Positions 3 through 27,063 of a DNA stretch of 27,064 nucleotides are shown one piece after another. This stretch comes from a virus (lineage: Duplodnaviria > Caudoviricetes). The translations under genes and the position numbers were made by a program. Under the pieces are notes generated by a model, which worked only from the letters and a program-made list of their open reading frames with translations, was not told where the DNA came from and did not search any database. The DNA is taken from positions 1-27,064 of the IMG/VR virus record IMGVR_UViG_3300023210_000175; one strand, written 5' to 3'. Position 1 is the stretch's first letter. Each line of letters starts with the position of its first letter.

Positions 3-1775
3 TGGTTGTTTAGTCCATTCAGTTCAAACTAAATACCAAAAAGGTGCATTAGTTTGTGCTGGTAAATTAAGTGTTATATCTTCATCCATTAATATTCAAC
101 TTGAAGTAGAAGTATAAACTAAGCTATTATTAGCTAATCAATTAATTCATAATCAACTTACATATTGAGTTCATCTAGTTATATGATTATATAAATGAGT
201 TTGTGTATCCATACTTCTTCAATGTCTTTCTTCTCAGAATAATATTATTTCTGAAGTTGTAGCATTCCAATATATAACTGAAATAAATGCACAAGTGTAA
301 AAAGCTCAAAGTATATCTGTTACTGAAGATAAGTTACCACTTGAATCAAAACAAATCATTCTTTCTCCTGTAGTATCTGCAAAGTTTATTTGTTCTAATC
401 CTGTTTTTACAAACTCTGTATTATTAACCATAAAACTATACTCTGTTTCTCAGTTTTCAGGATAAATAGCAAATCATCTAGCACTTGCTGGAGTTTGATA
501 TGCTGTTCAATTAGCAAAGTTTCAAGAAGAATTAGTAAATAACACTCAACTACTATCTCTACCAACTATATTAGTTCAATCTTCTGATATTTCTATTCTT
601 CAATTTGTTACTAGATTAAATCTATCAAATCAAGTCTTATCATCAACCTTTACTTCATTTATTGTCTTCCCTCAATCTTTTATTAGTTTACCTGTAGTTG
701 AGTCATAAGTTGCTATATTATTATCTTCTGCTGAAGTAGGTCAGACAACTAAATCACTTAAATTTTGTATTGATGGAACTCTAACTGCTAACACTCAATT
801 AACTGCATGTGCATATAATACGAATGCAACTGGTATTTCTATATTTGGAGAAGAAGGAGCTACATTAGTTAAGTTTCAAGCTATAGTTGGACTTGCATAT
901 AAAATATCTCAATCATTCCAAGTTTCACTTACTGTAGTTCAAGAAGTATCTATAGTATTAATCTTTCAAAAATGAGTTATAAATCCATCTGCACTATTTG
1001 CTATATTTTCTGTAACTATACCTAATGTAAACATTCAAGGTATACTTCAGTCTGCTATATATGGAGCTATTGTCATTTTACCACTTGATCATAAAGTTCA
1101 AGAAGCATATACTATAGTCCCATTATCTATTTGGCTTCAAGTATTATTTCTACCATACCAATATTGCTCTTGTCATATTTGTTGTGTTACATTTGCTGTA
1201 TGTACTAAATCCATTGTTTGTTCATTAGTATTCCAAGACATACTTCAAATATTTGTAGGTGCTACTGATGGCGTTAAATCAACACTTAATCATCAAATGT
1301 TACCTAAATTTCAATTATCATCTTGTGTAACTGTTCAATCTTGTATTAATTTACCTGTAGTTGTATCAAATCTTACTAAAGCATTATCTGTAGCAGAAGC
1401 TGGTCAAACAACATTAGCAGCCCCTCAACCACTTCAATTAGAAGCACTTGTTATTCTACCTTTACTGTCTACTGTAATATCAGTATTTGTATAACTTCAA
1501 GCTGCAACTGTTGTTGTTTTTAAATCAGCCTTAATATCTTGTCATGTAAGAGTTAAATCTATTTCAGCAGTATCCGTAACAGTTATATCTCATGTATTTG
1601 TTCATGATAAATTAGATACTTTTGTTTGTTCAGCATCAGTATAATTATTGTCTGATAATTCTTTTCAAACAACTTTATCCACTTTTAAGGCAAGTTCTGC
1701 TGTAGTGTCAGCTGGAAGGTTAGAAATGGCTTCTCAATCAATAAGTCTGTTAGATCCGATAGTTCTTTCACTCAT
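3..1775 (-). CDS. Tail fibre / receptor-binding protein (3' end truncated by the window edge)
   Basis: Open frame with TGA=Gly, starting MSERTIGSNRLIDGEAISNLP. Carries tail-fibre-type motifs KVDKVVGKELSDNNYTDAEQTKV and VAAGSYTNTDITVDSKGRITSASNG, plus two copies of VVGP.S..DN....D.TTGKLI.D. T/S/G-rich; last gene of the virion module. Confidence 0.8.
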
Positions 1776-1806
1776 AGTTTTTAATAATTAAATATTATAT
1801 ATTTTT

Positions 1807-1834
1807 ATTGTAAGGATTTTAAATAGTTTTGCAA
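1807..1834 (-). promoter_or_regulatory. sigma70-like promoter TTGCAA-N16-TACAAT for the tail fibre gene
   Basis: -35 at 1829-1834 and -10 at 1807-1812, intergenic and just upstream of ATG 1775. Confidence 0.65.
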
Positions 1835-1838
1835 AGTT

Positions 1839-1869
1839 AAAAAGTAGAGTTTTGAAGTTCTACTTTTTT
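1839..1869 (-). terminator. Putative intrinsic terminator after the polyvalent protein gene
   Basis: AAAAAGTAGA-10 nt-TCTACTTTTT inverted repeat overlapping the TAG stop. Confidence 0.5.
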
Positions 1870-4800
1870 AGCACTTTAATCTTCTTAAAATCATCTAAAG
1901 GATTACCATTCTCTTTTATAAATTGTTTAATCAACTCTCTTCTAGTTCAACTATTCTTAACATTTTGTAATCAAGTTAGTAATTTATCATAAACTCAAGA
2001 TTCAAGTTTAAGTTTTAATTTCTTAATATCACTTAATTCTCTTCAAGCTCAAGATAAATCTAATAAATCATCTACAGCACTTTCACTTAATCAAGTGTCT
2101 TTAGTTATTATTTGTTTACTTCTTGCTATATCTTCAGTTAAATCAGGAGCTTTCTTTTTTAATTCAGTATCTGCAAGTCTTTTCTCAACATTTCTTGCCT
2201 CTACTTCTCAAGCATTTCTTTTATATCATTCACTTCATGCTGCTTTTAAATTTGTACCACTAGCAAATCATTCAGTTTTTTGAATATTATGTTGAAGTTC
2301 ATGTAATAAAGTTGCTTTTTCTTTATCAGTAAGTTTATAAACATTTTTCATTGTTCAATCATATACTCACTCTAAATTCTTAGGTACATTAGGAGCTGAG
2401 TTTCTTGTTGAATATTTTTGTATAAGTTTATTCTTCCAAAGTAATGAATCAATTTTTAATTTATCAGTATTAAATGTAATTATATTAGTACCTGGATCAA
2501 ACTTAGCAGTTGCTCAAGATTTAATTTCTTTAAATACAACTTTAGTATCTTTTAAAATAGGATATTGTTCAAATAATTGTTTATGGTCTAATACTTCTGT
2601 TAACTTTAATCATTTATCTCATTCTATAGTCATAGTTCATTTAATCTTAGCTAAACTATCATCTATTTCAAACTTCCATTTTCAATCTTTTCATTTATTC
2701 CAACCTGTTTTTTCCCATATCTCTTGACTTGTTTTTCAAGCACTTTTCATATTCTTAGCTCTTTCTAAAGTTGTTACAGGAGCTTTTAATGCTCATTCTC
2801 AACCAAGTAACTTAGCTTTTACTCATGGAATATTATCAGATAATTCTTCAAATAAATCTCAAAGTTTATCTTTTAGTTTTTCTCAATACTTCCTTACATA
2901 TTTTTCTACTATTTTATAAGCTTGTTTTGTGTATTCTTTAGCAACTCACAAGTTTTTTACAATATTGTTAGATACTTGTTTAATTTGAGCAGGTGTTTTA
3001 ATCTTAGATCATAGCTTAATTATTTCATCTGCTATTTTTTCAAGTGCTTTAGTTTCAACAAAAGCTTTTTTGTTTATTGTGTTTGTAGACTTAACTAAAT
3101 CATCTGTAAAATTCTTTGTAAGTGATTCTTTAATATTTGGAATCATTTCATCAAATACTTCTTTTTTCCAGTATCATGCTCTATCATAAAAAGCTTTACT
3201 TCATTTATTTACTGATACGTATTGTTCTATCATTCTAGCTGTGATTTCTTTATCACTTGCCCAATATTTTCTTCCTCTATATCAATCTTTTACTTCATTA
3301 AAAGATATTTTACCTTTATTAATAAGGCTTTTGTTAAATAATTTATTATCTATCATATAATCAAGAGAGTGTCCTATTTCATGAGCTAATGTAGGATTAA
3401 TCTTTTTTATAACCATTTTTCAATCTGCTCATTTAAATTTAATTTCTTCTACTCCTCCTATAGATATACTATTCCCATTTTTAGTTTGTCTATATAATCC
3501 TGCTGTGTTTTTCATAAGAAAAGGATTTTTTCAGCTTAAATGTGATATAACCACTCTTTTATCTGTATATAATTTATTGATGTCAATTCAAGTTGCATCT
3601 GTAAAATCAGTTATTCATTCAACTACTTCATCAATTTGCTCTTTTAATATCTCTTTCCCATCTTGCCTTTTCATTCATACAGATATTCTATCATCAAACT
3701 TAATTCTTGAATCATCTACTCAAAATGATGTAGAAACTCCTTTTTCAAACCTCTCTCTATTATTAACAGCAGTTTTAAAAGACTTATCATAGTTCAATAC
3801 CTCATCAGGATATTTATATCATTTACTAATGTCTTTTTTAATCTTTGAAATATATACTTTTTTAATTGCATCATCTCACATAGATTTAATATTTTCAATT
3901 CATGGTGCTATTTTTGTATAATCTCTACCTAAAATTTCTTTTAATTTAAGTTTAATCTCTAGTTTTTTAAAGTAGTCTACATTTTCATTTACATATCTTT
4001 CAACATTTCTTTTCCTAATTCATTCATATTTTCAGTCTTTTAATCCTTGTTTATAAGTATTGTATTCATCAAAACTCTTTTTACTTCATCCTCTTATATC
4101 TGTTTTATTTCCTCTATAATCAGGTTTAATATCATCCCATGCTTTAATTAGCTCATCATATTCAGATTTAATCCCTTTTATTCATGCTTCAGGCGTTAAT
4201 TGTTGGTGTGCAACCAAATCAGGAGCTATTCTTTTAGCTCATACTTTTTTAGCTTCATCAGCCATAGAACTTCACTTAGGTAAAGTTTCAAAAGCTTCTG
4301 TAGTTTTAGATTCTACTTTCTTTCAAGGCACTTTTATTTTTGTTTCCATTTTTTGTGTTTTAGGAGTTAATGTATTAACATTATCTCACACTTTTTTTTT
4401 GCTGTCAATTTTTGAAGTCTTTTTTGGGGTTTTAATTACTTTTTCAGGCATATCTTTTATTGCTCTGTCTAAATATTCTAACTCGCTATATAATGAATCT
4501 TTATATCTATGACCTGTTTCATAAGTAGCTTCTCATAATTTAGTTTCTTTTCATACTGAAATAAATCATTCTCAATCTCTTTTTACAACTTTTACATACA
4601 CTCATCATTTTGAATAAATAGTTGTAAAATCATTAGGGGTTTCTTTTTTGTATCAATTGTATTTTAAGTATTTTTCCATACTTCAATCATCAGTATATTT
4701 ACCTTTGAATTCATCAGGAATAATTCTTCATTGTTCAGTTACTCATTCTTTTCTTATTTTATCACTTTGTGCTTGGATTTTTTCTCATCATTTTGTTACC

Positions 4801-7001
4801 TTCTTTGATTTTTGTTCTACAGTTTTTTCCACACCCTTTTCTTCGCTTACCTTAGCCATTTCTTTTTCAGATTTTTTTTCCACTTTTTTAGTAGGCTCTT
4901 TTTTGGTTTTTGGAGTAGGTTTTTTCGGAACTTTAATAGGTGTTTTTGTTGTACCTATTTTAGTTTTTTCTAAACCTTTTTTACTTTCTTGAATTATAGC
5001 TTTTTCAGCTGTTTGTGGGGTTATTACTGGTTCTTTCTTTCAAACTGGTAATGCTTTTTGAGGTTCTTTTGGTTTTATTATTTCTTTTGGTTTTAAAGTT
5101 ACATCAATATCCTCTTTTCAAGTCATCTTTTGAATTTTACTTCAAAGTGTAGCTTTTTTAGGTCAATGTAATTTAAATAATTCTTTAACTATATTATTAG
5201 GATTTTCTTTTCTTTTCTTTAATGCAGAGAAAGTTTTTCATAAAGCTCATTTAGCAAATTGTGATACATCTCATGTCATACCTCAAATAATCATTTCAGG
5301 CAAAGTAAAAATATCAGTTAATCATGTTAATCAACCTTTAGTATTTCTTGTAAATACTCACATTCTTCTAGCTAAATCTTTTTCTACAGTTCTTAAAGCT
5401 CAATATTCTTTCATTAAAGCTTTATTAGTTTTTCATAATACTGCTTCAATATTATTATCAAATAAGTTTCACATAGCTCTAGCAACAATACTATCTGCTA
5501 ATAATTGTTCTTTATCTGTAGTCATTAATTCTGACCATTTATTTGCAGGTACTTTTTGTCCTTGTTTTGTCTTTATAAATAATAAATCCTCTTGTGATAA
5601 TTTATTAGTGTTTGTAAATTGTTCTATATATTCATCAAGCTTTTTTTCTAATTTAGGATAAGCTTTCATTGTTAATTGTCATTCTTTTGTTGCTTTCCAA
5701 TCAAATACTGTATCAGCTATTTCTTGCTCTTTTGTTGATTTAGTAACATAATCTTGATTTTTTTCTACAGTTTTCCATACATCTTTTTTACTATCTCATA
5801 CTTTATTTAAAGCATCCATTCAATCTGAAGGTATACCTTTCCTTGTTGCAGCTGATTCAATTCATTCTCTAATTTTACTATTATATACAGCTATTTTAGG
5901 AGCAGTATCTTTTCAAACTATAGAAGGTCTTAATCATCTTGATATTAAATCATCTGATTTAGCTATATCAACTCATTTTTGTATTACTGGTTTTTTAGTA
6001 ATAATAGGAGTTACAATAGGTTCTTGTCATACAACTCATCTAAATTCTTGTCATCAAGTTTCAATTCTTTCTTTTAAAATTTTTCATGTATCTTTAAGTT
6101 TTTTTATTGGTCAAGTATTTCAACTAATTATTTTAGGAGCTTGATATTGTAAAGGTTTAGGTGCGATTATTCATGATGGTATAGTAGGTTTAACAATAGG
6201 AGCTACTGGAGGAGTTACAACTTGTTTAGCTGTTTGTTCAATTATTTCTTTTCAAACTTGTTTAGCAGGTTGCTTTAATAAACTAATACCCCATAAATCA
6301 GCAAAAAATTCTAATCATTTCATAGTTGCTCTTTGATTTCTTGCTTTACCTGGATCAGTTTCTTTTAATTCTTCATACTCTGAACTTATTTTTTGATAAG
6401 CTTCTCAAACCTTTTCTCATACTTTTGTATCAGCTACTTTTCAAACTAAAGCTTTTAACTCTTCTTCTGTTGATTCAGGTGTTAATACATCCATAGTAGA
6501 CATAAACAACTCTCTAAGAGGTGTTAATGCCACATCTCAACTCTCTAATAACATTTGCATTCAAGTATCAAAAGCTCCTTGTTCTCATTTTCTTAATCAT
6601 TCAGCACTTGCTTTATATCATTCTATATTTCATTTAATTTGTTCAGCCATTCTAGGTAAGATTTGTTCTTCCTCTAAAGGCTTTGATAATCAACCTATAA
6701 CTTCTTCTCAAACTCATTTTAAATATGAAGGAGCTTTTTTTACAGCCTCAAAAGCTTGTCATACAGGATGTTTTTTTAGAACTTTTGATATAAATCATTC
6801 CTCTTTTGGTTGCTCTAATCCTTTTTCTAAACTAGAAATACCTGTAGCAAAAGTTTGTGGTTCTTGTACAGGTGTTTGTTCTATAGTATCAAATAATCAA
6901 TCATTAACTGCTTGTTTATAGGCAACATTTATTTCATCTCTTGATTTATTTAAGTCTTTACCTCTTTGTATAAAAGATTGTACTTTAGTTTCATTTAACA
7001 T
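1860..7001 (-). CDS. Large polyvalent / internal virion (ejection) protein, 1713 aa, with an LPD1-like zincin, LPD23 and a second zincin-like metallopeptidase
   Basis: Single frame MLNETKVQSFIQRG...KIKVLKK-TAG with TGA=Gly, containing track ORF 5469-5669. Motifs: TLAHEIGHSLDY...YWASDKEITARMIEQYV (HExxH at 3369-3383, LPD1-like), IWEKTGWNKGKDGKWKFEIDDS (LPD23-like), LLHELQHNIQKTEGFASG...GEVEARNVEKR (HExxH at 2289-2303). Confidence 0.82.
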
Positions 7002-7003
7002 TT

Positions 7004-10000
7004 TTAGTAGTATTTATCAAATAAATCATCACTTGTAGGTTCTTTAGTTTCTACTCAAAAGTAAGAATCAAATTCATTATCCCCTCCATTTACTTGTCTT
7101 CATGTTCACAAAGCAGCTCATATTGCAGCTCCTTTACTTCATAAGGTTTGTGTATTTGATATATCTACAGGTGCTTTTCAAGTATATTTTTCTAGTCTAG
7201 CTACATTATTTCTAATTTCTTCATTATTTATTTCAGGTAATCAAGCATTTTTTCTTGCTATATTATAATCCCTTGTCATTTTTTTCATAATAACATCTAT
7301 TTTTCAAAATGCTTTTTCTGGATTATCTCTTATTGAAGGAATAACATTATCTAAAAATTTACTTTCTGATTCAGTAACAGCTGTACCTGATATTTTATTT
7401 CTGTATTCAGCTACATATAATGCTAAGTTTCATAACATTTCTTGAAAATCTGAATCTCATGTAATATATGTATTTACCATTTCTGATTTCCATCCTTCAA
7501 TAGGTCAGAATCTATCTTCATATTTTTCTAATCATTCTGTCATTTTATCATAAGTTCCCATATATCATTGTACTTCTGTTACAGGATTTTCATCTCATTT
7601 TCTTTTAAATCTTGCATCTTCAATAATATTCATAGCACCTTGATAATTACCATTATTTATTTGTTCTGAAACTTCTCATGGTAAATCTGTATTTACTCAA
7701 TAAGTATACTTTTTAAATTTATCTAAAGCAGTACCCATTTTAGTATCTCACTCATTTGTATCGTATAAATAATATCATGCGAATCTATCTATTATTCATT
7801 GATCATCGTATCAAGCTTCTCTTAAATCTACAAAATCTTCATAAAAACTTTGTCTTTCCTCCTCACTTGTTTGTTTACCCGATATAGCAAATAACATTTT
7901 CTTTAATTTAACCCTATCTTCTACTGATAAATCAATAGTTTCTTTCCATTTATTATACTGGTCTTTAGCTCATTGTAAATCTGTTCATAACATCTCTGAT
8001 AAATCATCAAACTTTCATTTATTTCAAAGATTTTTAAATAATGATACTTGTGAATCAGTAAATCATTCATCAATTCCCCTAAACTCATAATGTCCATAAT
8101 CTCATCTAGCTATTGTTTCTTCAGGTCTAAAGAATCAATTTTTATTCATTTCAGCATCAATTCATTCAAAATATTTAACTTTATCCTCTCATTCAGGTAA
8201 AACTACATCAACAGCATTTCATTCCATGTGTGGAGAATTAGTTGTCCATGTTACTATATTTTCTTCAGGTTGTGCATAACTTGCATCAATTCAAGCAGCA
8301 GTTAATTCTTCTGCTGTTCTCCCTTGTCCATATAAAGCATATTGATCCTCTTGTGTTCTATATAAATTAGATATATCAAATTGTATATCTGAGTTTGTAT
8401 CCATTATAGCATTTATTCAGTCTACAAGTCATTTAGTAGCTGTTATTTGAGTTCAATCATTTAATGTATATGTATCTAGTTTAGCTTGTTCAGCTGATAT
8501 ATTAGTTGCTTCTTCTTTTGGTACATTTTCTCATGTAATAGCACTTTTAAACTCTCATGTTCTTTGATTATATAAAAAGTTATCATCATATTTAGCCCAG
8601 TCTTGATAAGTTTTTCAATCAGCAACAGTAGTTTGTGTAAATCTTTCATCTGTTCTCATTTCAGCTACAACTTGAGCTGGAGTATTTCACTCTGAAAGTA
8701 ATGTATTAACCTTAGCTATATCATCTGTTGTTAAATTAGCAGTTTTACCTAATACAGTTTGAATTGAATTAGTCATGATATTCTTTAAATCAGTTAATTT
8801 AGCTTGTGATAATGTTCAAGCTGTAACTTCATTAGCAAGAGTAGTTAAATTAGTGTTTTGTAATAATTCAGCATCATTTGCTAAATATTCGTTAAATCTA
8901 ACATTTAATTTACCGTTTACTAATTCTTGTTCTTTATCATATAAATCAATAGCAGCATTAGTTCTGATTTGTTCATTTCTTAATAATTGTTGAAATTGTC
9001 AAACAGCAGCCATATCCATGCTTTGATATTCTTTTGCTATATCATTTAAAGCTTCAGTTAAAGCTTCACTTCAAGCTCAATATTTATCAGTTAATCCACT
9101 TAATTGTAGACCAGCATTATATTTAATGTCTTTTATTTGACTATTAAATTCATCAGTAGCTCTTTGAACTCATTTATTATAATCTTCTGTTAATCTTTCT
9201 AAATTAGTTGTATCTGTACCCTCATATCTCTCTAAAGAAGTACTTAATTTATTTATTATTTTTTGTCCATCATCTTTAATATTTTTAATACCTTGTGCAT
9301 ATCATGAACTTCTTAATCATCCTGTCCAAGCTCATTGAGCTGTTGCAAATTGTACATTTCTGTCAATATTTTCTTGTACTCAATCAATAGCTAATTCAGT
9401 ATCATCTTTCATGTTTTGAAGATTTGTTTTCATATCTTCTTTAGTCCTTCTGAAATTAGTATCAGCATCTGCCATTCATTGATCAAACTTTGTTGTTCAA
9501 GTATTCTTTTTTCATTCCTCACTTAAAATAAGATTATCTTCAAAAATTGTTCAAGAATCTTTTATATTATTAATATCTACTCAAAATCTATCTGCTAAAG
9601 TTTGATTTTGTTCATCTGTTAATTCAGATGTTCAGAACTCTTTGTATAATTCTATTTTTGCATCTCTTACTGAATTATATAAATCATTTACTTTATTATA
9701 ATTTGTATAATTTCATCTATTTTTTTCATAATTAGATGCTCCTCTTTCAAATTCCTTTAATTTAGTATCTACTGCTTTTCATTCTTCTTTTTCTATTCTA
9801 GCTCTTTCATCTCTTAATTTATTATCCATTTCCCATTTAGCATATTCTTCTTGGAAAGTTCATTGTGAATCTACATCAAAATCTTGATTTGTGTCTACTT
9901 TTCAAGTAGTTCAAGTAGTATCTTGTCATGGTATCTTAATTTTACCTCAAACAGTTGATTTAGGTGTATATTGATTAACATCAGGTATTTTTACTTGTGG

Positions 10001-10177: not shown

Positions 10178-10187
10178 AATAGTTTAA

Positions 10188-16103: not shown

Positions 16104-16138
16104 TTTTCTATAATTAATTATTAAAGTATTTTATGCAA

Positions 16139-16552: not shown

Positions 16553-16570
16553 TTTTGATTCTATTAAATA

Positions 16571-17314
16571 TTAAAGTTTGTGTAACTTCATAAAGTCAGA
16601 AATATCTTTCTTTAATGAAGCGTTTTTTGTTTCTTTATTTGAATTACCTCATTTACCTTCACTTTTAGTCATAGCTTTTCAAACAATTTCTCATTTCTGA
16701 AGTTTCTTTAATTGTTCTTCATTTCATGATATATCTCTATATGCTGCTTCTAAATGTTTTGATATAGTATCAGGGTTAAAGCTTTTTAGTCCTTGTCTAT
16801 CAGTAAATTCAGCTTCAAATTTTTCTAATTCTTCTCATTTAATATCTAAATCTTTAATAAACTTAGATTTTGTATTAGTGATTAAATCAGAACTAACTTT
16901 TTTTGCTAGTTTTTTTTCAACTAGAGCATCTATTACTTTTGGATCACTATAATCAACCTTATATTCAATACTTTCTTTAAAAGCATTTATATCTTGTCAA
17001 TCATAATATGTATCTAAAATAATTTGTGCTGCTTCTTCATTTTCAGAATATAGTTCAACTAATTCTTCAGGATTTTCAGATATATTACTTAAATTACTCA
17101 TAGCTAATTTATAAGCCTTTTGTCATTTAACTAACTTTTGTACTCATTTTTCAGAATTACTCTGCATATCCTTTTTAATAGCTTCTACCTCCTCTAATGT
17201 GAAAGTCTTTGTTTCAGTAGTTTCAACTTTAGCATCTGCTTTAGTTTCTTCTTCTGATTTTTCTTGGTTTAGATTTTTATCATCCTCCAATTCTTCAATT
17301 TTCTTATCCTCCAT
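16571..17314 (-). CDS. Capsid scaffolding protein (247 aa)
   Basis: MEDKKIEELEDDKNLNQEKSEEETK...DISDFMKLHKL-TAA. Acidic, E/K-rich and helical, immediately upstream of the head genes. Confidence 0.72.
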
Positions 17315-17336
17315 GTAAATATGGTTTAGATTATAA

Positions 17337-17411
17337 AATATAAAAATTTAGCTGTAGCCTTTTTTATATTAAGACATAGTCTTACTTGAACCAACCATCT
17401 CTGATTGATTC
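17337..17411 (-). promoter_or_regulatory. Three-hairpin structured leader of the scaffold gene
   Basis: GAATCAATCA-GAGA-TGGTTGGTTC (GNRA loop, G-U pairs only on the minus strand), TAAGAC-TAT-GTCTTA, and AATATAAAAA...TTTTTATATT. Confidence 0.5.
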
Positions 17412-17418
17412 TAAAAAA

Positions 17419-17916
17419 CTATTTCTTACCTCATACTATTCATTTTTGCTCTCATGTAAACTTATTTGTGAATTTATCTTTAGTTACATACTTACTTATC
17501 ATAGTAATTAACATATTATTTCTTGTTAATGCACCTGATAAATATTGTATAACATCATTAGCATTATCTTTATTTAATGTCTTAGCTATGTTCTTTGTAA
17601 ACTCATAACTATCTAACTCTAAATACTTAACAATCACTCATAGAGTAAATTTATCAGCTAATTTTAATGCACTTTCAAGTTCTTTAATATTTCTTGTTGG
17701 TTGATTCAAATTAATCTCTTTTGATTTTTCTAGTTTATCTTTAACTATATTATAACTGTGGTCAAGCTCATCACATTCTCTCTTGGATTCATTCAGTTGG
17801 ATTTCAAGCGACTGGTGGTAAATCTCAAGGGTTTCATTCCTCTGTTTGTATTTCTTTGTTTCCTCCCATAGCTCATCATAAAGCTTTCATTTCTTGATTA
17901 GGTCAAGGATTTTCAT
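17419..17916 (-). CDS. Hypothetical coiled-coil protein (165 aa) overlapping the portal 3' end
   Basis: MKILDLIKKGKLYDELWEETKKYK...GIVGGKK-TAG, containing track ORF 17452-17637. The start is uncertain because it lies inside the portal gene. Confidence 0.65.
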
Positions 17917-19741
17917 TTGTTGGTGTGTTAATTTTTAAAGCTTCTTGTAAAACTTTTAGTTTCTCCATATTTCTTCTAGCTATCTCATCTTTTTCTGTAT
18001 TTGCTTTTAATCAGTTTATATCATATCCATAAGTATCACTCATCCATCAGATTAATTCATCAAATCTAACAAATTCACTTAACTTCTTCATCATTTCTCA
18101 TGTTTGGTCTAAAGATGCAACATTTCACATTGTCATGATATTGTTAATAAATTCAGTTATTTTAGCTCTTTCTATAATATCTAAACTAACATTTGTTGAA
18201 CTTGTAACAATTTTAACTCCTATTCATTGAATAACATCAGGTTTTAATTCAAAATATCAGTATTTACCTATTGCTTCTACTACTATTTTCTTACCTCATT
18301 CTTTTTTAATCTCGTATCAATCCATTTTTATCAAAGGGAAAGTAGCTTTTAATAACTTTCAATCCTTTCAATAAATCTTTTCTGATAATAATGCAGGTGC
18401 AAATTGTTTTATTCTAGCCAACATCATTGTTAATGCAGAATCTAATCAAATATTGTAGTTTTCATCTACTGAACTTTGTCTAACTATTTTATTTGCTTCC
18501 ATTATCTCTACAATACCTACCTTATCACTTTGTGCTTGGAAAGGAGCTCTTAGATTATCTCATGTGTCTTGAACTACTAAATCATCAATTAAATTTAATA
18601 CAGTTGTAAAATATCATAAATTAGGACTTGTATTAACTTGTTGTACATTTTCAGCACCTCATGTTGTTCTCCATAAATTAACTTTTCTACCTCATACATC
18701 CCAATCTTGACCTATTTCATCATCTCCTCATACTAATAGATTAATTCAACTACTCATTGCTGATCCAGTTAGTATATCTTGTAATACTTCTGATTTATAA
18801 GCTTTCAGGTATCAAACTCTTCTTGGTACTCAATTACCCCGAATACAAGCATTGTTTGTATAATGTTGAACCATTTCTACTGGTAATTTACCATCATTAT
18901 ATAAATAGATTCAGTTTAATATTACAGTTTCTTCATTTGCTACAACTAAATACTTTTTAGTTATTCTATGATAATAATGCATAACAACTACATATCTTTC
19001 ATCTTGTGGTGTATCATTTAAGTTTTTAGGCTCTGTGTCAGTTCACTCAGTAACCATTGAAGTATTATATTGCTTAGCTCAATATCTAGTTTCAAACTCC
19101 ATCCATGATAATCTTTCTTTAATTATACAATCATCAGCTTTTTGTACATCATTTTCTCCATAAACTCAATCATCTATATAAAAATCTTTAGGATGAATAT
19201 TTTGTGGGAAAAAGAAATAAGTTTCATTCTCTGATTTATTAAAGTTTTTAGGGTTTTGTAAATCTGCTTCATCATTTATTACAGCATCTTCTTTAATTTC
19301 GTATCTATAATCTTTATAAGCTCTATGTCATGTAAACCGAACACCAGTTCAATATACAGCTTTGTTTTGTCTAAATTGTTTATTCTCTTTCCAAAAATTA
19401 TCTTTACCATTTCAATCTAAAAAGAAAGACATTGCAAACTTAGTTGGTTGTAATGCTTCTACATCAGCTTGACCATCTGGTTCAATAGCAAAATCTACTT
19501 TTCCATTAGTTCTACCCATATAAATCTCTATTAGATTCTCTTCTAAGGGTACATTAACATTAAGTTCTCATTGGTTATCATAATAACTTATTGCAGTAGT
19601 TTGTTTCTCATATTTATCAAACTCTTTAGTGATTGTACTTTTCTTACTTCTCATGAAGTTTAATCTATCTTGAAAATAGTCTAACCATTTAGCTTCAGAC
19701 CAATCTTTACTATTTACTATATCATTAGTAGGTGTTTGCAT
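17750..19741 (-). CDS. Portal protein (663 aa)
   Basis: MQTPTNDIVNSKDWSEAKWLDYFQDRLNFM... with QNKAVYGTGVRF and NIHPKDFYIDDG...ADDCIIKERLS motifs typical of P22-like portals. Directly follows terL and has a low-complexity G/P/E/Q tail. Confidence 0.85.
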
Positions 19742-19769
19742 ATATTTTTAATTACAAAGTATATAATTA

Positions 19770-19797
19770 AATATAATCCTTTTTAATCTTTAATCAA
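19770..19797 (-). promoter_or_regulatory. sigma70-like promoter TTGATT-N16-TATATT for the portal/head operon
   Basis: -35 at 19792-19797 and -10 at 19770-19775, in the terL-portal gap. Confidence 0.6.
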
Positions 19798-19798
19798 A

Positions 19799-21343
19799 TT
19801 ATATTGTAATTCTTTGATTCTCTCAGGTCATTTTGTTAGTAAATGTTCTTTTTTGAGGTTTTCTAATTATTAAAGATTTATAATCTACTGCTAAGTATCT
19901 AAATGAATCAGCCCCATTTGAATTTATATCATGTTTTGGCTTATTTCTAAACATTCAATTCTTTTCATCAAATTCTCTTCTATATCATGCTAATCTACTT
20001 AATCCAGTATAACATTTAGTTTCATCAAAATAACAATTAATAAATATTTCTCTTACTGCATTAATTCAATCCGATATTAATCCTTTTTTTACTACATTAA
20101 TCTTACCATTTAATTCTTTTTTAGCAATAGATAATCTTGTTTTTCATGTTGTATATTCTGTTACTTCTACATCAAAAGGGAAATTGTGTGTATCATAGTT
20201 ATTATATCTAGGATTTACAATAGTTTGTGCTATTTCTGTTAATCAATAACCACTTCATTCCCAGTAATCTATAATTCTAATTTCTTTAGCATATTTCTGA
20301 TAAAACCAAATAGCTGTTTCATCTCATCATCAAGCACCTCATAAATCCCAACTTGTATAAACTGCTAATTTTGGATCATAAAATACTTTTCAGACTCTTC
20401 ATTGTGTTCTAGCTAGTGATAATTCTTTTTCATAATAAGCACCTTTTATAGCTAAATCAAAAGCTTCTTTAGGATAACTTGGATATTCTCTTTGCATATC
20501 ATCCTTTTGTTCTTCTAATTTCTTTTGATACCATCTCTTTTGTCAATCTGTAAATGATAAGTTTGGATATTTCCTATTAATCCAGCTATCATCTAATATT
20601 TTCTGAAAGTATACATGAATATCATTTCTAATAATATCTTCTGAATCTAGTGTATATGTTTTATCTAGCCACCAAGCATAAAAATGAAATTTATAATCCA
20701 TGTTTGTTAATTCTTTTTCTTGTTCTTCTAATTCCATTGCCCTCATTGTCATATCAAAGAAATTTCAACTATTTCATTCTGCTGTACTTTCAATATCTGC
20801 CCTACTATTAGGAGCAATAGTGTTTAATGCACCTGTTTGTATTTCTCTTGCTTTTTCAGGATATTTGTTACAAATTTTACCATACTCTGAAATATGAATA
20901 TGTTGTAGTGTTCATCATCTAAATGAAGTATCAACTGAAACAGAGCAAGTGTTATTCTCAAACATTAACTCTCATTTCCTATCTGTTTTAAGTTTGTAGT
21001 TACTTTTTAGCCATTCAGGTACATTATCATAAACAAACTTTATCTTGTCCTTAAAAATCATTATACTTGAATCTTTATTATCTGCAATTATACCTCCAGT
21101 GTAATAAGAGCTAAATAATACATCATCCAGCATATCTATATCTATAAGCGTACTGAATCATAATTGCCTTGCTTTAAGAATTATATTTTTTGTATGCCTA
21201 TTCTCATAATAATGAGCTTGTGCCTCATTTGGAATAAATGACACCTTTTCTCAATTTTTATTCTTGATAAAATATAGTTTTCATGAGAATATTCTCCATT
21301 GTTTATCTGATAATTTTTTTAATAATTGTTCTCTTTCTGTCAT
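19799..21343 (-). CDS. terL: Terminase large subunit (514 aa)
   Basis: Walker A ILKARQLGFST; DTSFRGGTLQHIHISEYGKI; IESTAEGNSGNFF; QREYPSYPKEAF; nuclease motifs YTSWDLG, HNFPFD and PKHDINSNGADSFRYLA. Confidence 0.95.
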
Positions 21344-21720
21344 TAGTATATTTTATTATTAATAGTATCAAACTTATCAAATAATTCTTTATCTATTTGT
21401 TTAGTTTGATGTGCATAATATGGATTAAGATAATATTTACTCACACTATCACTAACTAATTTGAACTTTCAAACTATTCAATTCTTTATAAATAAAGGTC
21501 TTAATTTTTTTACAGTTCATTCAGGTAATTCTAATATATCAAAATTAACCTCATTATCTTTTCTCATAGTATGAATTAATTTTATTACATAATACATTTT
21601 AGCTGTTCATATCTTTTCCGCTAAACTATCTATATTATATTCTATATTCATTTTTACAAACTTATATTTTAAATGTAAATATTCTTTACTTTTTTTGGTT
21701 TTTAAATAATATGTCATCAT
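21343..21720 (-). CDS. Hypothetical protein (125 aa), possibly RepL-like winged helix
   Basis: MMTYYLKTKKSKEYLHLKYKFVKM...TVKKLRPLFIKNGIVGKF...SKYYLNPYYAH. The stop overlaps the terL start (TAATG). Confidence 0.6.
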
Positions 21721-21747
21721 TAAGGATTTAGTATTGTAGTTATTACT

Positions 21748-21775
21748 AATATAATCCTTGTGTCAGTAAAAGCAA
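21748..21775 (-). promoter_or_regulatory. sigma70-like promoter TTGCTT-N16-TATATT
   Basis: -35 at 21770-21775 and -10 at 21748-21753. Confidence 0.6.
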
Positions 21776-21829
21776 ATAAAAGTTCCGAATAATATACTTT
21801 TTAGTATACTATATATGGAACTTTTATTT
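21774..21829 (-). terminator. Long hairpin / terminator between terS and the RepL-like gene
   Basis: 13-bp arms aaataaaagttcc (21774-21786) and ggaacttttattt (21817-21829) enclose an inner ATAGTATACT/AGTATATTAT stem. Confidence 0.55.
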
Positions 21830-21886
21830 TTTTATTGGCTTTATACTTAACTTGAAAGTTAATCCCTCTTATATCTTATATTAGAT

Positions 21887-22294
21887 TTATAACTTGTTAT
21901 CCTTCATTCATTGTATTTCTTGTAGTACATCTCAAAGTATATTATGATTTTCTGTAGATTCTCACTCCATTAATCTGTTTTGTTTAAAAGCTGATTCTCT
22001 TAATGCTGTTAATTGAGCAATAGTAATTTTTTCGTCTTTATTACAAATTAATTCTGAAATCATTATATCAGCCATTGATTGTAAATCATTGTTTCTATCT
22101 ATCAAATTCGCCACTAAAACACTCTTTTCGCCAATTTTCGCCAAGTTTTCCTTTATAATTCTACTTACTGTTCTTTCTGACATTCATAATTTTATTGCAA
22201 TATCTGAAGCACTAGAATTATTATTTATTTTTTCTTCTATTACTTTTGCTTCTTTTTCATAGGAAGTTTTTTTTCATCTTTTACTTTCAATCAT
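21887..22294 (-). CDS. terS: Terminase small subunit (135 aa), N-terminal HTH
   Basis: MIESKRGKKTSYEKEAKVI...ASDIAIKLGMSERTVSRII (HTH)...QNRLMEGESTENHN. Lies shortly upstream of terL. Confidence 0.68.
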
Positions 22295-22295
22295 C

Positions 22296-22424
22296 CTAAT
22301 AATTTAAAAAGTAAAATATAATTGCTGCTATTACTACTGCTAATAGTAAAGGGTGTATCATAAACAGAATAACTGCTGATCATATAATCACAGTTGCTGC
22401 TAGTATTAAGTTTATTATAAACAT
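22296..22424 (-). CDS. Small hydrophobic membrane peptide (42 aa)
   Basis: MFIINLILAATVIIGSAVILFMIHPLLLAVIAAIIFYFLNY-TAG, abutting the terS start. Confidence 0.55.
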
Positions 22425-22451
22425 ATTATATATAGTTATTAAATTAAATCA

Positions 22452-22590
22452 AGTTATAAGTTCAACTATCATATAGTAGCTAAACCTATAACTAAATAGG
22501 CTCTTAAATAATAAGTTACTGAAAATAACAATTATTAATAAGATATACTTTTTTTACTTGCGAAGGTAAGAGTAATCTAAAACCTATTTA
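22452..22590 (-). ncRNA. Structured non-coding segment downstream of the HNH gene
   Basis: 17-bp stem 22452-22468/22477-22493 with three G-U pairs on the minus strand, plus an AAATAGG.../...CCTATTT closing stem and an inner GTTATT/AGTAAC hairpin. Confidence 0.45.
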
Positions 22591-23118
22591 TTGGGGGAAT
22601 TCCCATTTATATCATCAAGCTGTTTTCCTTTTTCAATTACAGCACTTTGATATTAATCAATTACATATTCATAATTCCCTACTTATATCAGACAAACTAT
22701 CCCATAATTTTATTATATTTCAATGTAAAGATAATTGTATCACTTTTTTTGAATTATGGTTTAATATTCATTGTAAACCTTTATATCACTTAATCTTTCT
22801 TCTTTTATTCATCATATCATCCATATTATCCTGATGAGTACCTAAAAATAAATTGTTTAGATAATTATTACTAGGATTGTCATCTCTATGACAAACTAAC
22901 ATTTTACTATCATCTATATTTAGTCAAAGAAATGCTTGGGCGACTAATCTATGAATAGAAAACATTTTTTTATTATTCTTCTTTGATAACCTAACTACTT
23001 TATATTTTACAACAGTTCCTGGTTTTAATATAATATTCTTTCTCAAACTTTTTACCATCCCTTTTATACTTACTGCATATAATCATTCATATCCAATAAT
23101 ATCTTTCCATTCCTCCAT
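22588..23118 (-). CDS. NUMOD4-HNH-NUMOD1 homing endonuclease (176 aa)
   Basis: MEEWKDIIGYEGLYAVS (NUMOD4); IHRLVAQAFL...VCHRDDNPSNNYLNNLFLGTHQDN (HNH); ISKCCNGKRKTAGGYKW (NUMOD1/IENR1). Confidence 0.92.
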
Positions 23119-23131
23119 AAATTTACAAATT

Positions 23132-23219
23132 AAAAACTCTTACAAACAGGCTTAACTCGCTAAAGACAACCTGCTCGTAAGAGCCTATAATAAGGGCGAG
23201 TTAATTTAATGTCTTTAGC
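23132..23219 (-). ncRNA. Candidate pseudoknot / attenuator 5' leader RNA of the HNH gene
   Basis: 14-bp stem 23170-23183/23137-23150 (two G-U on the minus strand) plus a T5 tail. Its 19-nt loop is complementary to two upstream boxes, 23210-23219 (10 bp) and 23196-23204 (9 bp). Confidence 0.62.
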
Positions 23220-23226
23220 TAAGAAT

Positions 23227-23254
23227 ACTATATCCATTTTAATATAAAAAGCAA
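23227..23254 (-). promoter_or_regulatory. sigma70-like promoter TTGCTT-N16-TATAGT for the HNH gene
   Basis: -35 at 23249-23254 and -10 at 23227-23232. Confidence 0.6.
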
Positions 23255-23277
23255 TCTTATCTTTGTCTTATCTCTGA

Positions 23278-23397
23278 CTATAATTTATTTATATAATCTA
23301 TTAATATGCTATAATATAATATATTAGATATTACTACTCCTGCTAGTAGTAATAGATTTAGCAGTAGCCATGTTAAGGCTTTTTGTAGTTTAGTCAT
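23278..23397 (-). CDS. Small hydrophobic peptide (39 aa)
   Basis: MTKLQKALTWLLLNLLLLAGVVISNILYYSILIDYINKL-TAG; the start overlaps the YopX stop. Confidence 0.45.
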   Translation of the reverse strand: MTKLQKALTWLLLNLLLLAGVVISNILYYSILIDYINKL

Positions 23398-23794
23398 TTT
23401 CTATTAAGTTAGGGTTTTCATATATGTTTCAAACTACATATACTCAGGAAATATCTTTCCCCGTTTTACTATCTGTGCAATTTCAATCTTCTAATGCTTC
23501 GTGTAAAGGTGTTATAAGTCAAGGAGTATATACTATAAAGCCTGAAAATTCCTCATCATATTCAACCTTAGAATAATTATCTATTCAAGCAATATTATTT
23601 CAGTCCCATACTATATCCCCCTCATATATTTCTTTTCAGTTCTTATCTTTTAATCATATGTATTGCATAACTACATTAGAGGCTCTTCAGTCCTCAAAAG
23701 CTCTATAGTCTTCATATCATTTTCAATCACTTACTACAACATTATCGTAATTCATTATCATTCAGTTGTAAGTTCTAAACTTTAAATTATTCAT
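23390..23794 (-). CDS. yopX: YopX family protein (134 aa)
   Basis: MNNLKFRTYNG...VMQYIGLKDKNGKEIYEGDIV...VVGNIYENPNLI. Confidence 0.92.
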
Positions 23795-23796
23795 AA

Positions 23797-23922
23797 TTAT
23801 ATTTTTTTAAAATAATCTTCTTCACTCATTTCTTCTATGTGTTGTATAGTAATGTTGTTACACACTCATTTACAGCTACATTTTCTAGGTGTTTTACTGT
23901 TAGGACATTGGTTAGGTTTCAT
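23797..23922 (-). CDS. Small Cys-rich hypothetical protein (41 aa)
   Basis: MKPNQCPNSKTPRKCSCKGVCNNITIQHIEEMSEEDYFKKI; fills the gap between neighbours exactly. Confidence 0.5.
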
Positions 23923-23924
23923 AA

Positions 23925-24236
23925 TTAAGTGTTATAAGCTATTTCTTTACTATCAAAATCATATAATTCTAAATAATGCAACATAGTAACTTCTCATATT
24001 TCTTGAACTAATATACTTCTTTGTTCAATAGTCAATTCTTTTCATTCAAACTTATCCCATAAATTTCTCATAAGTACAGACTGCCAAGTCATTCATAGAG
24101 CAGTTTTACAATAATTACTTAAATGTCTAGTAGGTCATTCTGTTGCTTCTATTTCTTGTATCTTAACTAGAGTATTAAACATATTCTCTATTTGGTTTTC
24201 TAGTTTTTGTGTCAAAATTTCTAATTGAGTTTCCAT
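23925..24236 (-). CDS. Hypothetical protein (103 aa)
   Basis: METQLEILTQKLENQIENMFNTLVK...KEIAYNT-TAA, open with TGA=Gly. Confidence 0.65.
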
Positions 24237-24242
24237 ATTTAT

Positions 24243-24410
24243 TTAGTTAGGATATATTCTTATCCGACCTTGTTTTTGTTTTTCTTTATATATTAATTCT
24301 CTTTTCAAAACTTCTTCATTATATTTTTGTTTATATTTTTTACTTTCTTTTTCTTCTTGAAATAAGAATATTCAGTAAATAATAATACATATTATAAATA
24401 TTATTAACAT
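24243..24410 (-). CDS. Small membrane-anchored protein (55 aa)
   Basis: MLIIFIICIIIYGIFLF followed by a charged tail, QEEKESKKYKQKY...IYPN. Confidence 0.55.
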
Positions 24411-24417
24411 AAGTTAT

Positions 24418-24798
24418 TTAGTTAGTATATATTTCAGTTGGAAAGGTTTTATGTTTTATTCAATCCCATTTAATATCAGTTTGTTTTATTTCGTCTAATC
24501 AGAATATATGAAAACTAATTATTGTGTTTTTATATTTGAAATACATAATTCAATCTCTTTGTCAGTATTCTATATTTAAGTCATATTCATTTATATTATT
24601 TATAGCTTTTCTAATAAATTTATTTTTAAGTTTATAATTATCTTCTTTTTTAAATCTACTTATTCTAGCATAATCTGTTTTAGTACCAAAGTTTATTTTT
24701 GAATTTTCTATTGCTCTATCTCTTAAAGAATGGGCTTCTCTGTTAGCATTAAATGCTTGTTCAATAGCTCTTATTGCAGTATAATAATTTGGTTTCAT
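24418..24798 (-). CDS. Hypothetical protein (126 aa)
   Basis: Track ORF extended through TGA: ...NIEYGQRDGIMYFKYKNTIISFHIFG...KWDGIKHK...TN-TAA. Confidence 0.7.
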
Positions 24799-24800
24799 AA

Positions 24801-24947
24801 TTATTTCTTTAGTAAGTTAATAATCTCATTGTAGCAGTTTTTAATTACCTCTACTTGTTTAGCTAAACTGTAATGGATATTAGTTTCTTTAAGTTGCTGA
24901 ATTACACTGTCTGCTTTCTCATTTGCTAGTTTTAGTTTCTTGTTCAT
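24801..24947 (-). CDS. Hypothetical protein (48 aa)
   Basis: MNKKLKLANEKADSVIQQLKE...IINLLKK-TAA; overlaps the Rha 3' end. Confidence 0.45.
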   Translation of the reverse strand: MNKKLKLANEKADSVIQQLKETNIHYSLAKQVEVIKNCYNEIINLLKK

Positions 24948-25641
24948 TAATTAATAGATTAGGTGTTTTTAAATACAAAGTTCCTGCAAAATTATCTAGT
25001 GCTATTTTACATAATAAATAAATCTCTTTATAGTGTGTTCATTTATTCATTTCTTCTACAATCACTCCTTTTAACATATTTTCTGCAACTGTTAAGTGAA
25101 ATAACTCCATTTTATCTAAAGTATCTCTAGTTTTAGGTTTATTATGTTGTAATAATTTTAAAGCCTTGTATTCAGCCTTAGTTAAATTAGCATAATAAAA
25201 TTTAACTCAACTACTTGCTCCTTGTTTTTTTGCATATTCAATAAAGTCTTTAATTGTATCTGTTGCTTGTAATCTAATTTGTTTTCATAATTCTCTAGTA
25301 GTTATCCACTCACTATTTTGTTGTTGTAACAATATCTTCTCCATTTGATTAAAAGCCTTAATAAACTGTAATTTTTTATTGTGTGCTTTTTTATTTTGAA
25401 TATTCATAACAATAAACATATATCAATCTCTATTTATTGAATAATTATCAAATGTTCTTTTATATGAATTTTCAAATGTAGATTTTCTAAACATTGCTTC
25501 AAAATCTATGGTGGAAATTTCCACCCTAAAATTATGTATTTTTCTTAATAATTCTTTATGTGCAATTCCAAATTCTTCTCAAATTCTATTACTTGTAGTT
25601 CTTGCTTCTCATTTTATTAGATTTACCAACTCTTTTACCAT
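24889..25641 (-). CDS. rha: Rha family phage regulatory protein (250 aa)
   Basis: ARTTSNRIGEEFGIAHKELLRKI...YSINRDGYMFIVMNIQNKKAHNKKLQFIKAFNQMEK, followed by a WITTRELGKQIRLQATDTIK C-terminal domain. Confidence 0.88.
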
Positions 25642-25697
25642 AATATTAGTATTAACAATTAATACTAATATTATATTCTTTTATTATAATAAATCAA
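25640..25697 (-). promoter_or_regulatory. Promoter TTGATT-N16-TATAAT with an overlapping 16-bp-arm palindrome
   Basis: -35 at 25692-25697 and -10 at 25670-25675. Perfect inverted repeat 25640-25655/25659-25674 touches both the -10 box and the ATG. Confidence 0.65.
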
Positions 25698-25711
25698 ATT
25701 TTAATTTTTCA

Positions 25712-25930
25712 TTACATTTTTCTTTTATCAAATATTCATAATTCAGCAAGGCTTATATTTGGCATATCTTTTTCAAAACCGCAGTATACAAGTGTAAGTT
25801 TTCAAACTTTCCCCTTAGCTTCTTCTATAATCTCATTGAATTGTCTATTGGTATGAACTGTTCTTAATTTCTTTAAGTCTTGTTCTGATAAGTCTAAGCT
25901 ATCTATATAATCAAAGTCTAATCTTTTCAT
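25712..25930 (-). CDS. Hypothetical protein (72 aa)
   Basis: MKRLDFDYIDSLDLSEQDLKKL...LGIFDKRKM-TAA. Confidence 0.6.
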
Positions 25931-25941
25931 AGTTATTTAAT

Positions 25942-26145
25942 TTAAAGTAAATGTTCTCAAAGCCATAAACTATTTTCTTCTTCTATTCTTTTATCAACTA
26001 ATAATTTATCTACTAATTCTCTAAAAGTATCTATTGTTTCTTGTGCGAAATCACAATGCTGATTATCTTCTAATAAGTATATCAGAGTATTACTCATATC
26101 AGTTGCTTCTGATATGAGCCTGTTGGTTTCAGTTATTTCTTTCAT
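25942..26145 (-). CDS. Hypothetical protein (67 aa)
   Basis: Track ORF MKEITETNRL... extended by GEHLL-TAA. Confidence 0.6.
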
Positions 26146-26148
26146 AAT

Positions 26149-26418
26149 TTAATAATTATCATTTAAAACTTGTTCTATATCTGTTTTTGCTTCATTTTGT
26201 ACTTGTTCAAGAATTTTAGTTCTTAACCATAATTCTTTTGAAAGTCATTTCATACTTTGGTATTTCTCCCATTCTGCTTGAGTTAAACCAACCTCAACTT
26301 TTTTACTTAATCTTGATATTTCTCCAAAATCTTTGTGGTAATCAGAAGTTAATCAAGTTTGTCAATCAGCTTCTAATACTCAATTTAAAACATAATCAAT
26401 AGGTTGTTTATTTCTCAT
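26149..26418 (-). CDS. Hypothetical protein (89 aa)
   Basis: MRNKQPIDYVLNGVLEADGQTG...EQVLNDNY-TAA. Confidence 0.62.
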
Positions 26419-26686
26419 TTTTTGTAGTAGTTAAACCATAATTTAATATAAATTTTTCTGCCTCTTTTCTAAGTTTTGACTTTATAGTATAGGGCTTTAA
26501 ATATTCCATTAACCATTGTCTAAACTCTTGTTCTTTTTCTACTGTTGTTTTATAATATATAAACCAATCCTCTCATTCTACTTTTCAATCTTCTCATTTT
26601 ACATTATCAAAAGTAACGTCATATCAATTTATTTCAAATTGCTTATTTATGATTATCTCTAGGTTTGATTTTTCAAGTTCTTTCAT
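26408..26686 (-). CDS. Hypothetical protein (92 aa)
   Basis: MKELEKSNLEIIINKQFEINGYDVTFD...FILNYGLTTTKNEK-TAA. Confidence 0.65.
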
Positions 26687-26691
26687 TTGTT

Positions 26692-27063
26692 TTAATCAGT
26701 TAATTCTAAAGCTTTTTTATTTTTAAATTTCCATATATACCCTCCTGCTCTTTTCCTTTTTCAATTACAACACATAGATATTCAAGTATCTGATTTTAAT
26801 CATACTCAAATTCCTGCTTCTGTAATACTATTAAATGTTTGTATAAGTTTTCAATTTATTGTGTATTGATTTACTTTTTTATAATGGGCTTTCGAAACCT
26901 TATCTTTAGTTTTTTGAGTATGTTTTACTCACTTATGACTTAATCTCATTTTTTCTATTGATTGTTCTTTGTGTTTTCTTCATTTCATATAAGGGATATG
27001 CCCTTGTTTTGATTTACTAATTTTATCTTTAGTTTTTTGAGTATGAAATAAAACCAAGGGCAT
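26692..27063 (-). CDS. NUMOD3-repeat / NUMOD1 DNA-binding region of a homing endonuclease (probably 5'-truncated by the window edge)
   Basis: HTQKTKDKISKSKQG, KGRKHKEQSIEKMRLSHKGVKHTQKTKDKVSKAH (NUMOD3 repeats; exact 23-bp repeat at 26900-26922 and 27023-27045), then KVNQYTINGKLIQTFNSITEA...ISMCCNGKRKRAGGYIW (NUMOD1). Confidence 0.82.

Follow-up and report, generated by a model that had tools for sequence, protein, structure and literature searches.

Evidence for TGA as glycine and CGG as tryptophan in a tailed phage from seawater metagenomes

The window analysed here is a stretch of 27,064 nucleotides from a virus (Caudoviricetes; IMG/VR record IMGVR_UViG_3300023210_000175), and represents roughly 60% of a tailed phage genome of 45 kb. 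Judged from the alignments of its genes, TGA is almost certainly read as glycine in this phage, and there are strong grounds for reading CGG as tryptophan. The first of these readings is already known for phages: code 25, in which TGA is Gly, has been described in PMC10746230, bioRxiv 10.1101/2021.08.26.457843 and PMC13059738. A preliminary description of the sequence had proposed a phage fully recoded for TGA = Gly; it missed that the recoding is uneven across genes, and that CGG appears to be recoded as well. What the present analysis adds is an apparent sense-codon reassignment in a phage, and a narrowing of the host from it.

Open reading frames (ORFs) of at least 60 amino acids (aa) on the minus strand were called with translation table 11 or with TGA read through. 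Under table 11 the window has 19 short ORFs and coverage of that strand was 8.3%, rising to 93.2% with TGA read through; a curated set of 28 minus-strand ORFs covered 94.8% of the window. TGA was present in 27 of these 28, the remaining ORF being without any Gly codon. The curated ORFs hold 434 TGA, 214 GGN and 62 TGG codons, so that TGA makes up 434 of 648 Gly codons. If TGA were Trp, their composition would be 5.8% Trp and 2.5% Gly, compared to 0.7% Trp and 7.5% Gly if it is Gly. The motifs in which TGA had been placed at conserved Gly positions are present in the sequence: KARQL[TGA]FST and SFR[TGA][TGA]TLQ in the terminase large subunit (TerL), QYI[TGA]LKDKN[TGA]KEIYE[GGG]D and VV[TGA]NIYENP in YopX, and KTA[TGA][TGA]YKW in the HNH/NUMOD gene, where the paralog at 26692-27063 reads KRA[GGA][GGG]YIW.

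The residues aligned with TGA were tallied in three ways. At the DNA level, 80 of 80 terminase loci lacked in-frame stops, and in the 22 TerL columns with TGA in the window, Gly made up 747 of 1334 aligned residues from these loci; it was the top residue in 14 of the 22, and Trp in none. TerL columns with TGG held Trp in 420 of 585 residues. Against four cultured standard-code phages, Gly filled 58 of 88 cells under TGA, with Trp absent from the eight commonest entries. Finally, nine gene families from the window and 17 relatives were aligned by codon; where TGA fell in a conserved column, that column was Gly 312 times and Ala, the next residue, 13 times; Trp was again absent from the eight commonest, and TGA interchanged with GGN. 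Excluded from this last tally were further copies of this phage (L001, L003, L004, L006 and L011), the distant L002 (62% guanine plus cytosine, GC), L014 (counts the same as L009), and L015, L017 and L018, which were treated as near-copies of L016 without direct comparison. The sole TGA-to-Trp case seen was one RusA TGA in a poorly aligned N-terminal stretch.

Public protein records of the phage assume the opposite, namely that TGA is Trp (table 4). In entries P0001 and P0121 the TGA sites appear to be filled by Trp (31 Trp and 11 Gly in P0001), and most of the records P0002-P0240 carry Trp at Gly columns. A tally over database proteins was dropped and replaced by the DNA-level and standard-code tallies, because it was confounded by the Trp that most close homologs show in Gly columns, seemingly a product of gene calling under table 4. 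For most public records of the family, translation by that table thus seems likely. With Trp never the top residue in a TerL TGA column of the 80 stop-free homologs, and with TGA swapping for GGN, the Trp reading is refuted by all three tallies and we give it a negligible chance. Gene calling by table and the residue tallies, both proposed as checks in the preliminary description, therefore bore out glycine, and the Trp-dominated columns that would have spoken against it did not appear.

The rest of the genome was approached through a sister record, G001 (44,900 bp, terminal repeats, 100% complete), which is 100% identical to the window over 1-19000 and 99.96% over 9802-26435. The window's last 630 bases are unlike G001. 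Both end forms occur in the runs that contain the phage, and the window is therefore a strain variant, with G001 a proxy for its missing part. These six runs (X1-X6) are seawater metagenomes, X3 and X4 not flagged as source of the record and two of the six possibly its source; no RNA dataset was listed among them. G001 adds genes for DnaB, a primase-like protein, a DnaD-like protein, ERF, NinB, RusA, two DNA methylases and HNH proteins. Over 62 ORFs (window plus G001 flanks), TGA accounts for 725 of 1035 Gly codons, and the replication genes of G001 are as TGA-rich as the virion genes (DnaB 17/21, primase-like 16/20, ERF 8/9). Among early genes with at least eight Gly codons none was significantly TGA-poor; in the genome only the capsid gene and its neighbour were. 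Recoding of regulatory and structural genes alike was thus as first described, and “fully recoded” holds for the genome-wide spread of TGA but not for an even spread, the capsid gene having TGA at 5 of 34 Gly codons. A suppressor tRNA, which the preliminary description had not seen, was likewise not found: there is no tRNA gene in the window, and in G001 no tRNA (by ARAGORN, which may miss unusual tRNAs), no Rfam match and no PCRF (release-factor) domain. In the relatives, tRNA-Gly(TCA) was in none of 19 loci scanned; single tRNA calls were made in two of them (L009 1533-1605, Ile-AAT; L025 675-759, Tyr-GTA).

The second apparent reassignment emerges from the arginine box. In the 14117 codons of the 62 ORFs, AGA occurs 418 times, AGG 40, CGT 3, CGC 0, CGA 1 and CGG 7, so that AGA and AGG make up 458 of 469 Arg-box codons. 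Four of the seven CGG codons could be aligned, and all four stand in Trp or aromatic columns. Two are in the portal gene. At portal aa 301 (18839-18841, minus strand), 119 homologs have Trp 56, Tyr 41 and Arg 17 times, and DNA-level relatives Trp 10, Tyr 1 and Val 1. At portal aa 135 (19337-19339, minus strand), the homologs have Phe 54, Ala 19, Trp 10, Arg 9 and Tyr 9 times, and the relatives Phe 13, Tyr 2 and Asp 1. The other two lie at RusA 132, with Trp in five of six cultured phages and Tyr in one, and at methylase 100, with Trp 67 and Arg 5 times among the 132 of 150 homologs that aligned; when the methylase was searched against PDB, position 100 was not usefully covered. Of the portal columns with AGA or AGG, 0 of 22 have an aromatic top residue, and a hand calculation puts the chance of such a split (4/4 against 0/22) at approximately 1 in 15,000. 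No other letters were seen at the portal CGG sites in runs X1 and X3, nor in the assembled contigs of X3 and X4 over 8000-24800 where the window was covered.

The relatives fall into different patterns. The low-GC loci L005, L008, L012 and L013 each have a CGG in a Trp or Phe column, and CGA is almost absent from them. L010 has CGA in Trp (3) and Phe (2) columns, at 48 CGA per 10,000 codons, while in eight relatives of 31-42% GC both CGA and CGG fall in Arg or Lys columns. The genome of L010 (G004; 42,226 bp, terminal repeats) is a complete distant relative with a code of the type found in Absconditabacterales (SR1), and no tRNA was found in it.

Several points weigh against CGG as Trp. Only four of the seven CGG codons, and not the single CGA, could be aligned, since early genes are hardly shared among the relatives (for the DnaB of G001, no match was found in five related records). 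The column at portal 135 is mostly Phe or Tyr rather than Trp. Of the four CGG sites in relatives, three share the window's two portal columns and may not be independent. The low-GC relative L026 has a CGG in a column with Glu 4 and Trp 1, and loci with the Trp-like CGG do not group on the portal tree, where their 5 rows need 5 changes (shuffles were as low in 500 of 500). A different account would keep plain table 25, with CGG still Arg and its occurrences Trp-to-Arg missense changes. TGG to CGG is a single base change (a transition), the CGG sites are few, and of 119 homologs, 17 carry Arg at portal 301 and 9 at portal 135. Such Arg entries are, however, what CGG or CGA gives under table 4 or 11, and Arg also turns up in invariant Trp columns of TerL and portal homologs. 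The missense account would further require four independent changes from Trp or another aromatic residue to Arg, at conserved sites, in a phage that otherwise writes Arg almost only as AGA or AGG; none of the testable CGG codons lies in an Arg column, and it is in the higher-GC relatives that CGG and CGA align with Arg or Lys, the reverse of the pattern here. We consider it improbable, and hold CGG to be Trp with good confidence on the strength of the aligned columns.

Which bacteria use such a code? UGA = Gly has been demonstrated by proteomics in a BD1-5 bacterium (PMC4032931), and prfB is described as absent from BD1-5 genomes (PMC6851277). For the Arg codons, the survey of Shulgina and Eddy (PMC8629427) gives CGA = Trp in Absconditabacterales, with CGA at 13-37 per 10,000; eight low-GC BD1-5 genomes without tRNA(UCG), with CGA at 0.8-6.7 per 10,000; CGG = Trp in two of these eight rows (UBA5194 and UBA6489; GC 0.24-0.27, CGA about 1 per 10,000); and CGN = Arg in higher-GC BD1-5. 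The Arg-box rates of the phage best fit UBA5194 and UBA6489 and fit SR1 poorly. From the phage's codons, a host that uses code 25 is very probable, and a low-GC BD1-5 member of the Gracilibacteria, reasoned from the code alone, is likely. Some observations tell against this assignment. The host codon rates come from Pfam-aligned conserved bacterial domains and need not predict phage usage, and CGG = Trp in the hosts is itself a computational prediction for two of eight low-GC BD1-5 rows. No CRISPR (clustered regularly interspaced short palindromic repeats) array was found among the loose ends listed for the mapped reads, and a type V-A repeat motif matched 0 of 34 loci. No host flank or prophage junction was found at the related loci examined, in a search that included no Gracilibacteria or Absconditabacteria genomes. 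The only GTDB match was a related code-25 phage, as two contigs in a Cytophagales bin.

An SR1 host had been the first guess, and was dropped on the CGA rates in the host codon table. SR1 bacteria read UGA as Gly and are predicted to read both CGA and CGG as Trp (PMC8629427), so that the same code would result if the phage used little CGA. Most putative SR1 phages are reported to use code 25, while 34 of 38 putative Gracilibacteria phages longer than 20 kb are reported as not clearly recoded (PMC10746230), and in L010, which is distantly related, CGA falls in Trp and Phe columns. In all ten SR1 rows of the survey, however, CGA exceeds CGG (PMC8629427); these rows predict 19-52 CGA where the phage has one CGA and seven CGG, and the probability of at most one CGA is at most 1e-7 for every row. 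L010, with its many CGA codons, shows what an SR1-type member looks like. An SR1 host is therefore unlikely, and of the Gracilibacteria or Absconditabacteria host first put forward, the low-GC BD1-5 Gracilibacteria part fits the codon pattern and the SR1 part fits it poorly.

We propose that the phage probably borrows both readings, TGA = Gly and CGG = Trp, from a low-GC BD1-5 Gracilibacteria host, because neither a tRNA nor a release-factor gene was detected in its complete sister genome. A host tRNA-Gly(UCA) would decode TGA and a host tRNA(CCG) charged with Trp would decode CGG, with the code unchanged during infection and no switch. AT-biased mutation would turn GGA into TGA wherever this is tolerated, and selection would retain ordinary Gly codons in the most-translated genes. 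The earlier suggestion that the phage matches its host's code rather than switching it agrees with the recoding of early and late genes alike, and with the lack of a detectable tRNA or release factor in G001.

A standard-code host such as a member of the Bacteroidota, with the code switched by an undetected mechanism, would be the converse arrangement. The Cytophagales bin that holds the two pieces of a related code-25 phage has two release-factor genes, and the AT-rich upstream regions of the phage genes would also suit Bacteroidota. The two contigs (10,000 and 6,003 bp) consist of phage sequence over their whole length, without host flank, as in mis-binning, which is our reading of the match, though an unproven one. 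Under table 11 the replication and regulatory genes are unreadable, no tRNA or release factor was detected, and a switch by stop suppression leaves CGG = Trp unexplained. Early genes free of the recoded codon, a mark of code switching, are not seen, given the TGA proportions in the DnaB, primase-like and ERF genes. Code-switching phages of standard-code hosts (crAss-like, Lak and the Borges clades) do read a stop as sense, as this phage does. In those phages, however, the recoded share is described as 26-71% of genes, most of them late, the new meaning is Trp or Gln, and a suppressor tRNA is often present, whereas in this phage TGA stands for Gly to the same extent in early genes, and no tRNA was found. 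A standard-code host is thus very improbable.

The unevenness of the recoding lies in the capsid block. TGA accounts for approximately 70% of Gly codons overall, but for 5 of 34 in the capsid gene (p = 1.4e-11) and 1 of 12 in its upstream neighbour (p = 1.3e-5). In each of the 10 genomes with a capsid gene, these two genes had a lower TGA share than the other homologous genes (Wilcoxon p = 0.002), and in four of the ten they had no TGA. The share of Trp in Gly columns of database proteins, a proxy for TGA that carries the caveat that some entries may come from another translation table, had a median of 0.00 in 48 capsids, 0.52 in 119 portals and 0.44 in 60 terminases. Conservation alone was rejected as the cause, as conserved Gly columns keep TGA by this proxy in the portal and TerL medians. 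The capsid gene and its neighbour also favour GCT, ACT and TCT. On these codon counts the simplest reading would be that translational selection acts on the proteins made in greatest amount and that AT-biased mutation spreads TGA elsewhere. TGA is likely to be a tolerated, non-optimal codon, because the capsid block is TGA-poor in all ten comparable genomes. This speaks against the idea of Liu et al. (PMC10746230), who suggest codon optimisation of TGA-dense phage genes for efficient translation. No report of TGA depletion in capsid genes was found in the literature searched, which covered few subscription papers. In L005 and L052 (contigs C134 and C64 of G002), the code-25 phage pieces from the Cytophagales bin, the capsid gene and neighbour have TGA at 0 of 47 Gly codons.

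In other respects the phage resembles the code-25 phages of Gracilibacteria and Absconditabacteria (PMC10746230; bioRxiv 10.1101/2021.08.26.457843), in which TGA is described as dense in nearly all genes. The share of genes with TGA is given as about 90% by Borges et al., compared to 27 of 28 here, and almost no table-11 ORFs and a code presumed to match the host are common to both. The hosts of the phages of Liu et al. and Borges et al. were linked by spacers or integration, and no such link was found here; the main texts of these two reports do not mention CGG or CGA. RSA-ATP1, described as a 39-kb tailed phage of Absconditicoccaceae with code 25 (PMC13059738), is similar in size and, compared by description, in its early genes for a DNA methylase, HNH, DnaD-like, DnaB-like, NinB-like and RusA-like proteins and TerL. 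It has four tRNAs including tRNA-Gly(TCA), in contrast to G001 with none detectable, and UGA in 39 of 65 ORFs; CGA and CGG go unmentioned in that paper. The nearest likeness for CGG is bacterial, as the CGA and CGG reassignments of Shulgina and Eddy (2021, PMC8629427) combine CGG at Trp sites, AGA-dominated Arg and low GC, as does the phage. Those predictions concern bacterial genomes, with Gracilibacteria only tentative, whereas here they are matched in phage genes, in a family with all three host patterns.

These patterns raise the possibility, which we put at slightly short of even, that one short-tailed phage family infects the whole class of UGA = Gly bacteria, retuned to three dialects: CGG = Trp (low-GC BD1-5), CGA = Trp (SR1; L010) and CGN = Arg (higher-GC BD1-5). 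If so, this would be the first case found of phages following bacterial sense-codon reassignment, and the scattered pattern on the tree would be a record of repeated jumps across code barriers. The avoidance of UGA in the capsid would then show that reassignment leaves a codon second-rate even where the host is fully recoded, and codon meaning would be a marker for host prediction. No report of sense-codon reassignment in a phage was found in the literature searched (few subscription papers covered), and a 2026 k-mer screen is described as covering cellular genomes only (10.64898/2026.04.02.715157). Sense-codon changes in bacteria have so far been computational predictions, and two genomes underlie CGG = Trp in Gracilibacteria. 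CGG at conserved Trp sites of a phage offers independent support for that assignment, because the host machinery must read the phage. The code likewise offers a host assignment for phages of uncultured bacteria, which are often without CRISPR. For annotation, table 25 would mistranslate the CGG sites, and for most members of the family public protein sets seem to give Trp, wrongly, for TGA.

The gene content is that of the Caudoviricetes, with an HK97-fold capsid protein, TerL and a portal as markers; all genes below lie on the minus strand. The major capsid gene (15018-16103) gave an AlphaFold model with a pLDDT (predicted local distance difference test) of 76, and all listed structural matches were phage capsids (best E 1.6e-11). 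Its 137-aa upstream neighbour (16139-16552), without a Pfam or PHROG match, is by its position a likely decoration or cement protein. A likely scaffold gene (16571-17314; 8/11 Gly as TGA), conserved and lying between portal and capsid, is followed by the SU10-portal-like portal gene (17750-19741; 37/57), which holds two of the CGG codons. The portal had no match among 50,697 GenBank phages; PF23899 was found in 7 of 21 members of a portal alignment, and not in the window's own protein. TerL (19799-21343; 22/33) is about 41% identical to annotated terminases, and a helix-turn-helix (HTH) protein (21887-22294) is likely to be the terminase small subunit, as it lies upstream of TerL in relatives.

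At the other side of the capsid gene lie the 5′ part of a tail-fibre-like gene (3-1775; 44/61) that continues in G001, labelled by composition and position without a family match, and two very large genes. One encodes a 1713-aa protein with LPD23 and weak LPD1 domains (1860-7001; 105/140) and the other a 1057-aa protein with an endolysin-like domain at approximately aa 596-697 (7004-10177; 67/92; phrog_465, phrog_6523), conserved in relatives; both are probably ejection proteins. The size of these genes, their endolysin-like and LPD23 domains, and the lack of any tape-measure or sheath match together point to a virion that would have a short tail and ejection proteins. Two conserved virion genes follow, which by position may encode a short-tail component (822 aa, 10188-12656; 46/71; no family match) and an adaptor or tail component (357 aa, 12663-13736; 18/25).

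The remaining genes are an antirepressor-like Rha/KilAC gene (14096-14818; 8/13), a NUMOD4-HNH-NUMOD endonuclease (22588-23118; 10/15), YopX (23390-23794; 12/15), a 55-aa ORF (24243-24410) for which no homolog was found and which contains the window's third CGG (24264-24266), and a Rha-family regulator (24889-25641; 7/11). A third gene of the Rha/antirepressor type is present in L004 at 4333-5088, and in run X1 some joints pass over the Rha gene near 24840-25709. Such genes are usual in temperate phages; no integrase was found among the 57 proteins scanned in Pfam, a scan that some small ORFs fell outside.

The strain-variable end (26421-27063) contains a 92-aa ORF and the NUMOD3/NUMOD1 gene (26692-27063), with other genes in G001. 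It appears as a module swap, in which window 26421-27064 takes the place of a small membrane-protein-like ORF and an HTH-like ORF at approximately 30590-31240 of G001. A 51-base branch at window position 1365 resembles a paralogous fibre motif and not a repeat. Very high AT content marks the 22 bases before each of the 28 ORFs, and by eye no Shine-Dalgarno motif stands out. Finally, a 165-aa ORF (17419-17916, minus strand) shares approximately 167 bases, in another frame, with the 3′ end of the portal gene, and a homolog with a similar portal overlap occurs in about ten relatives.

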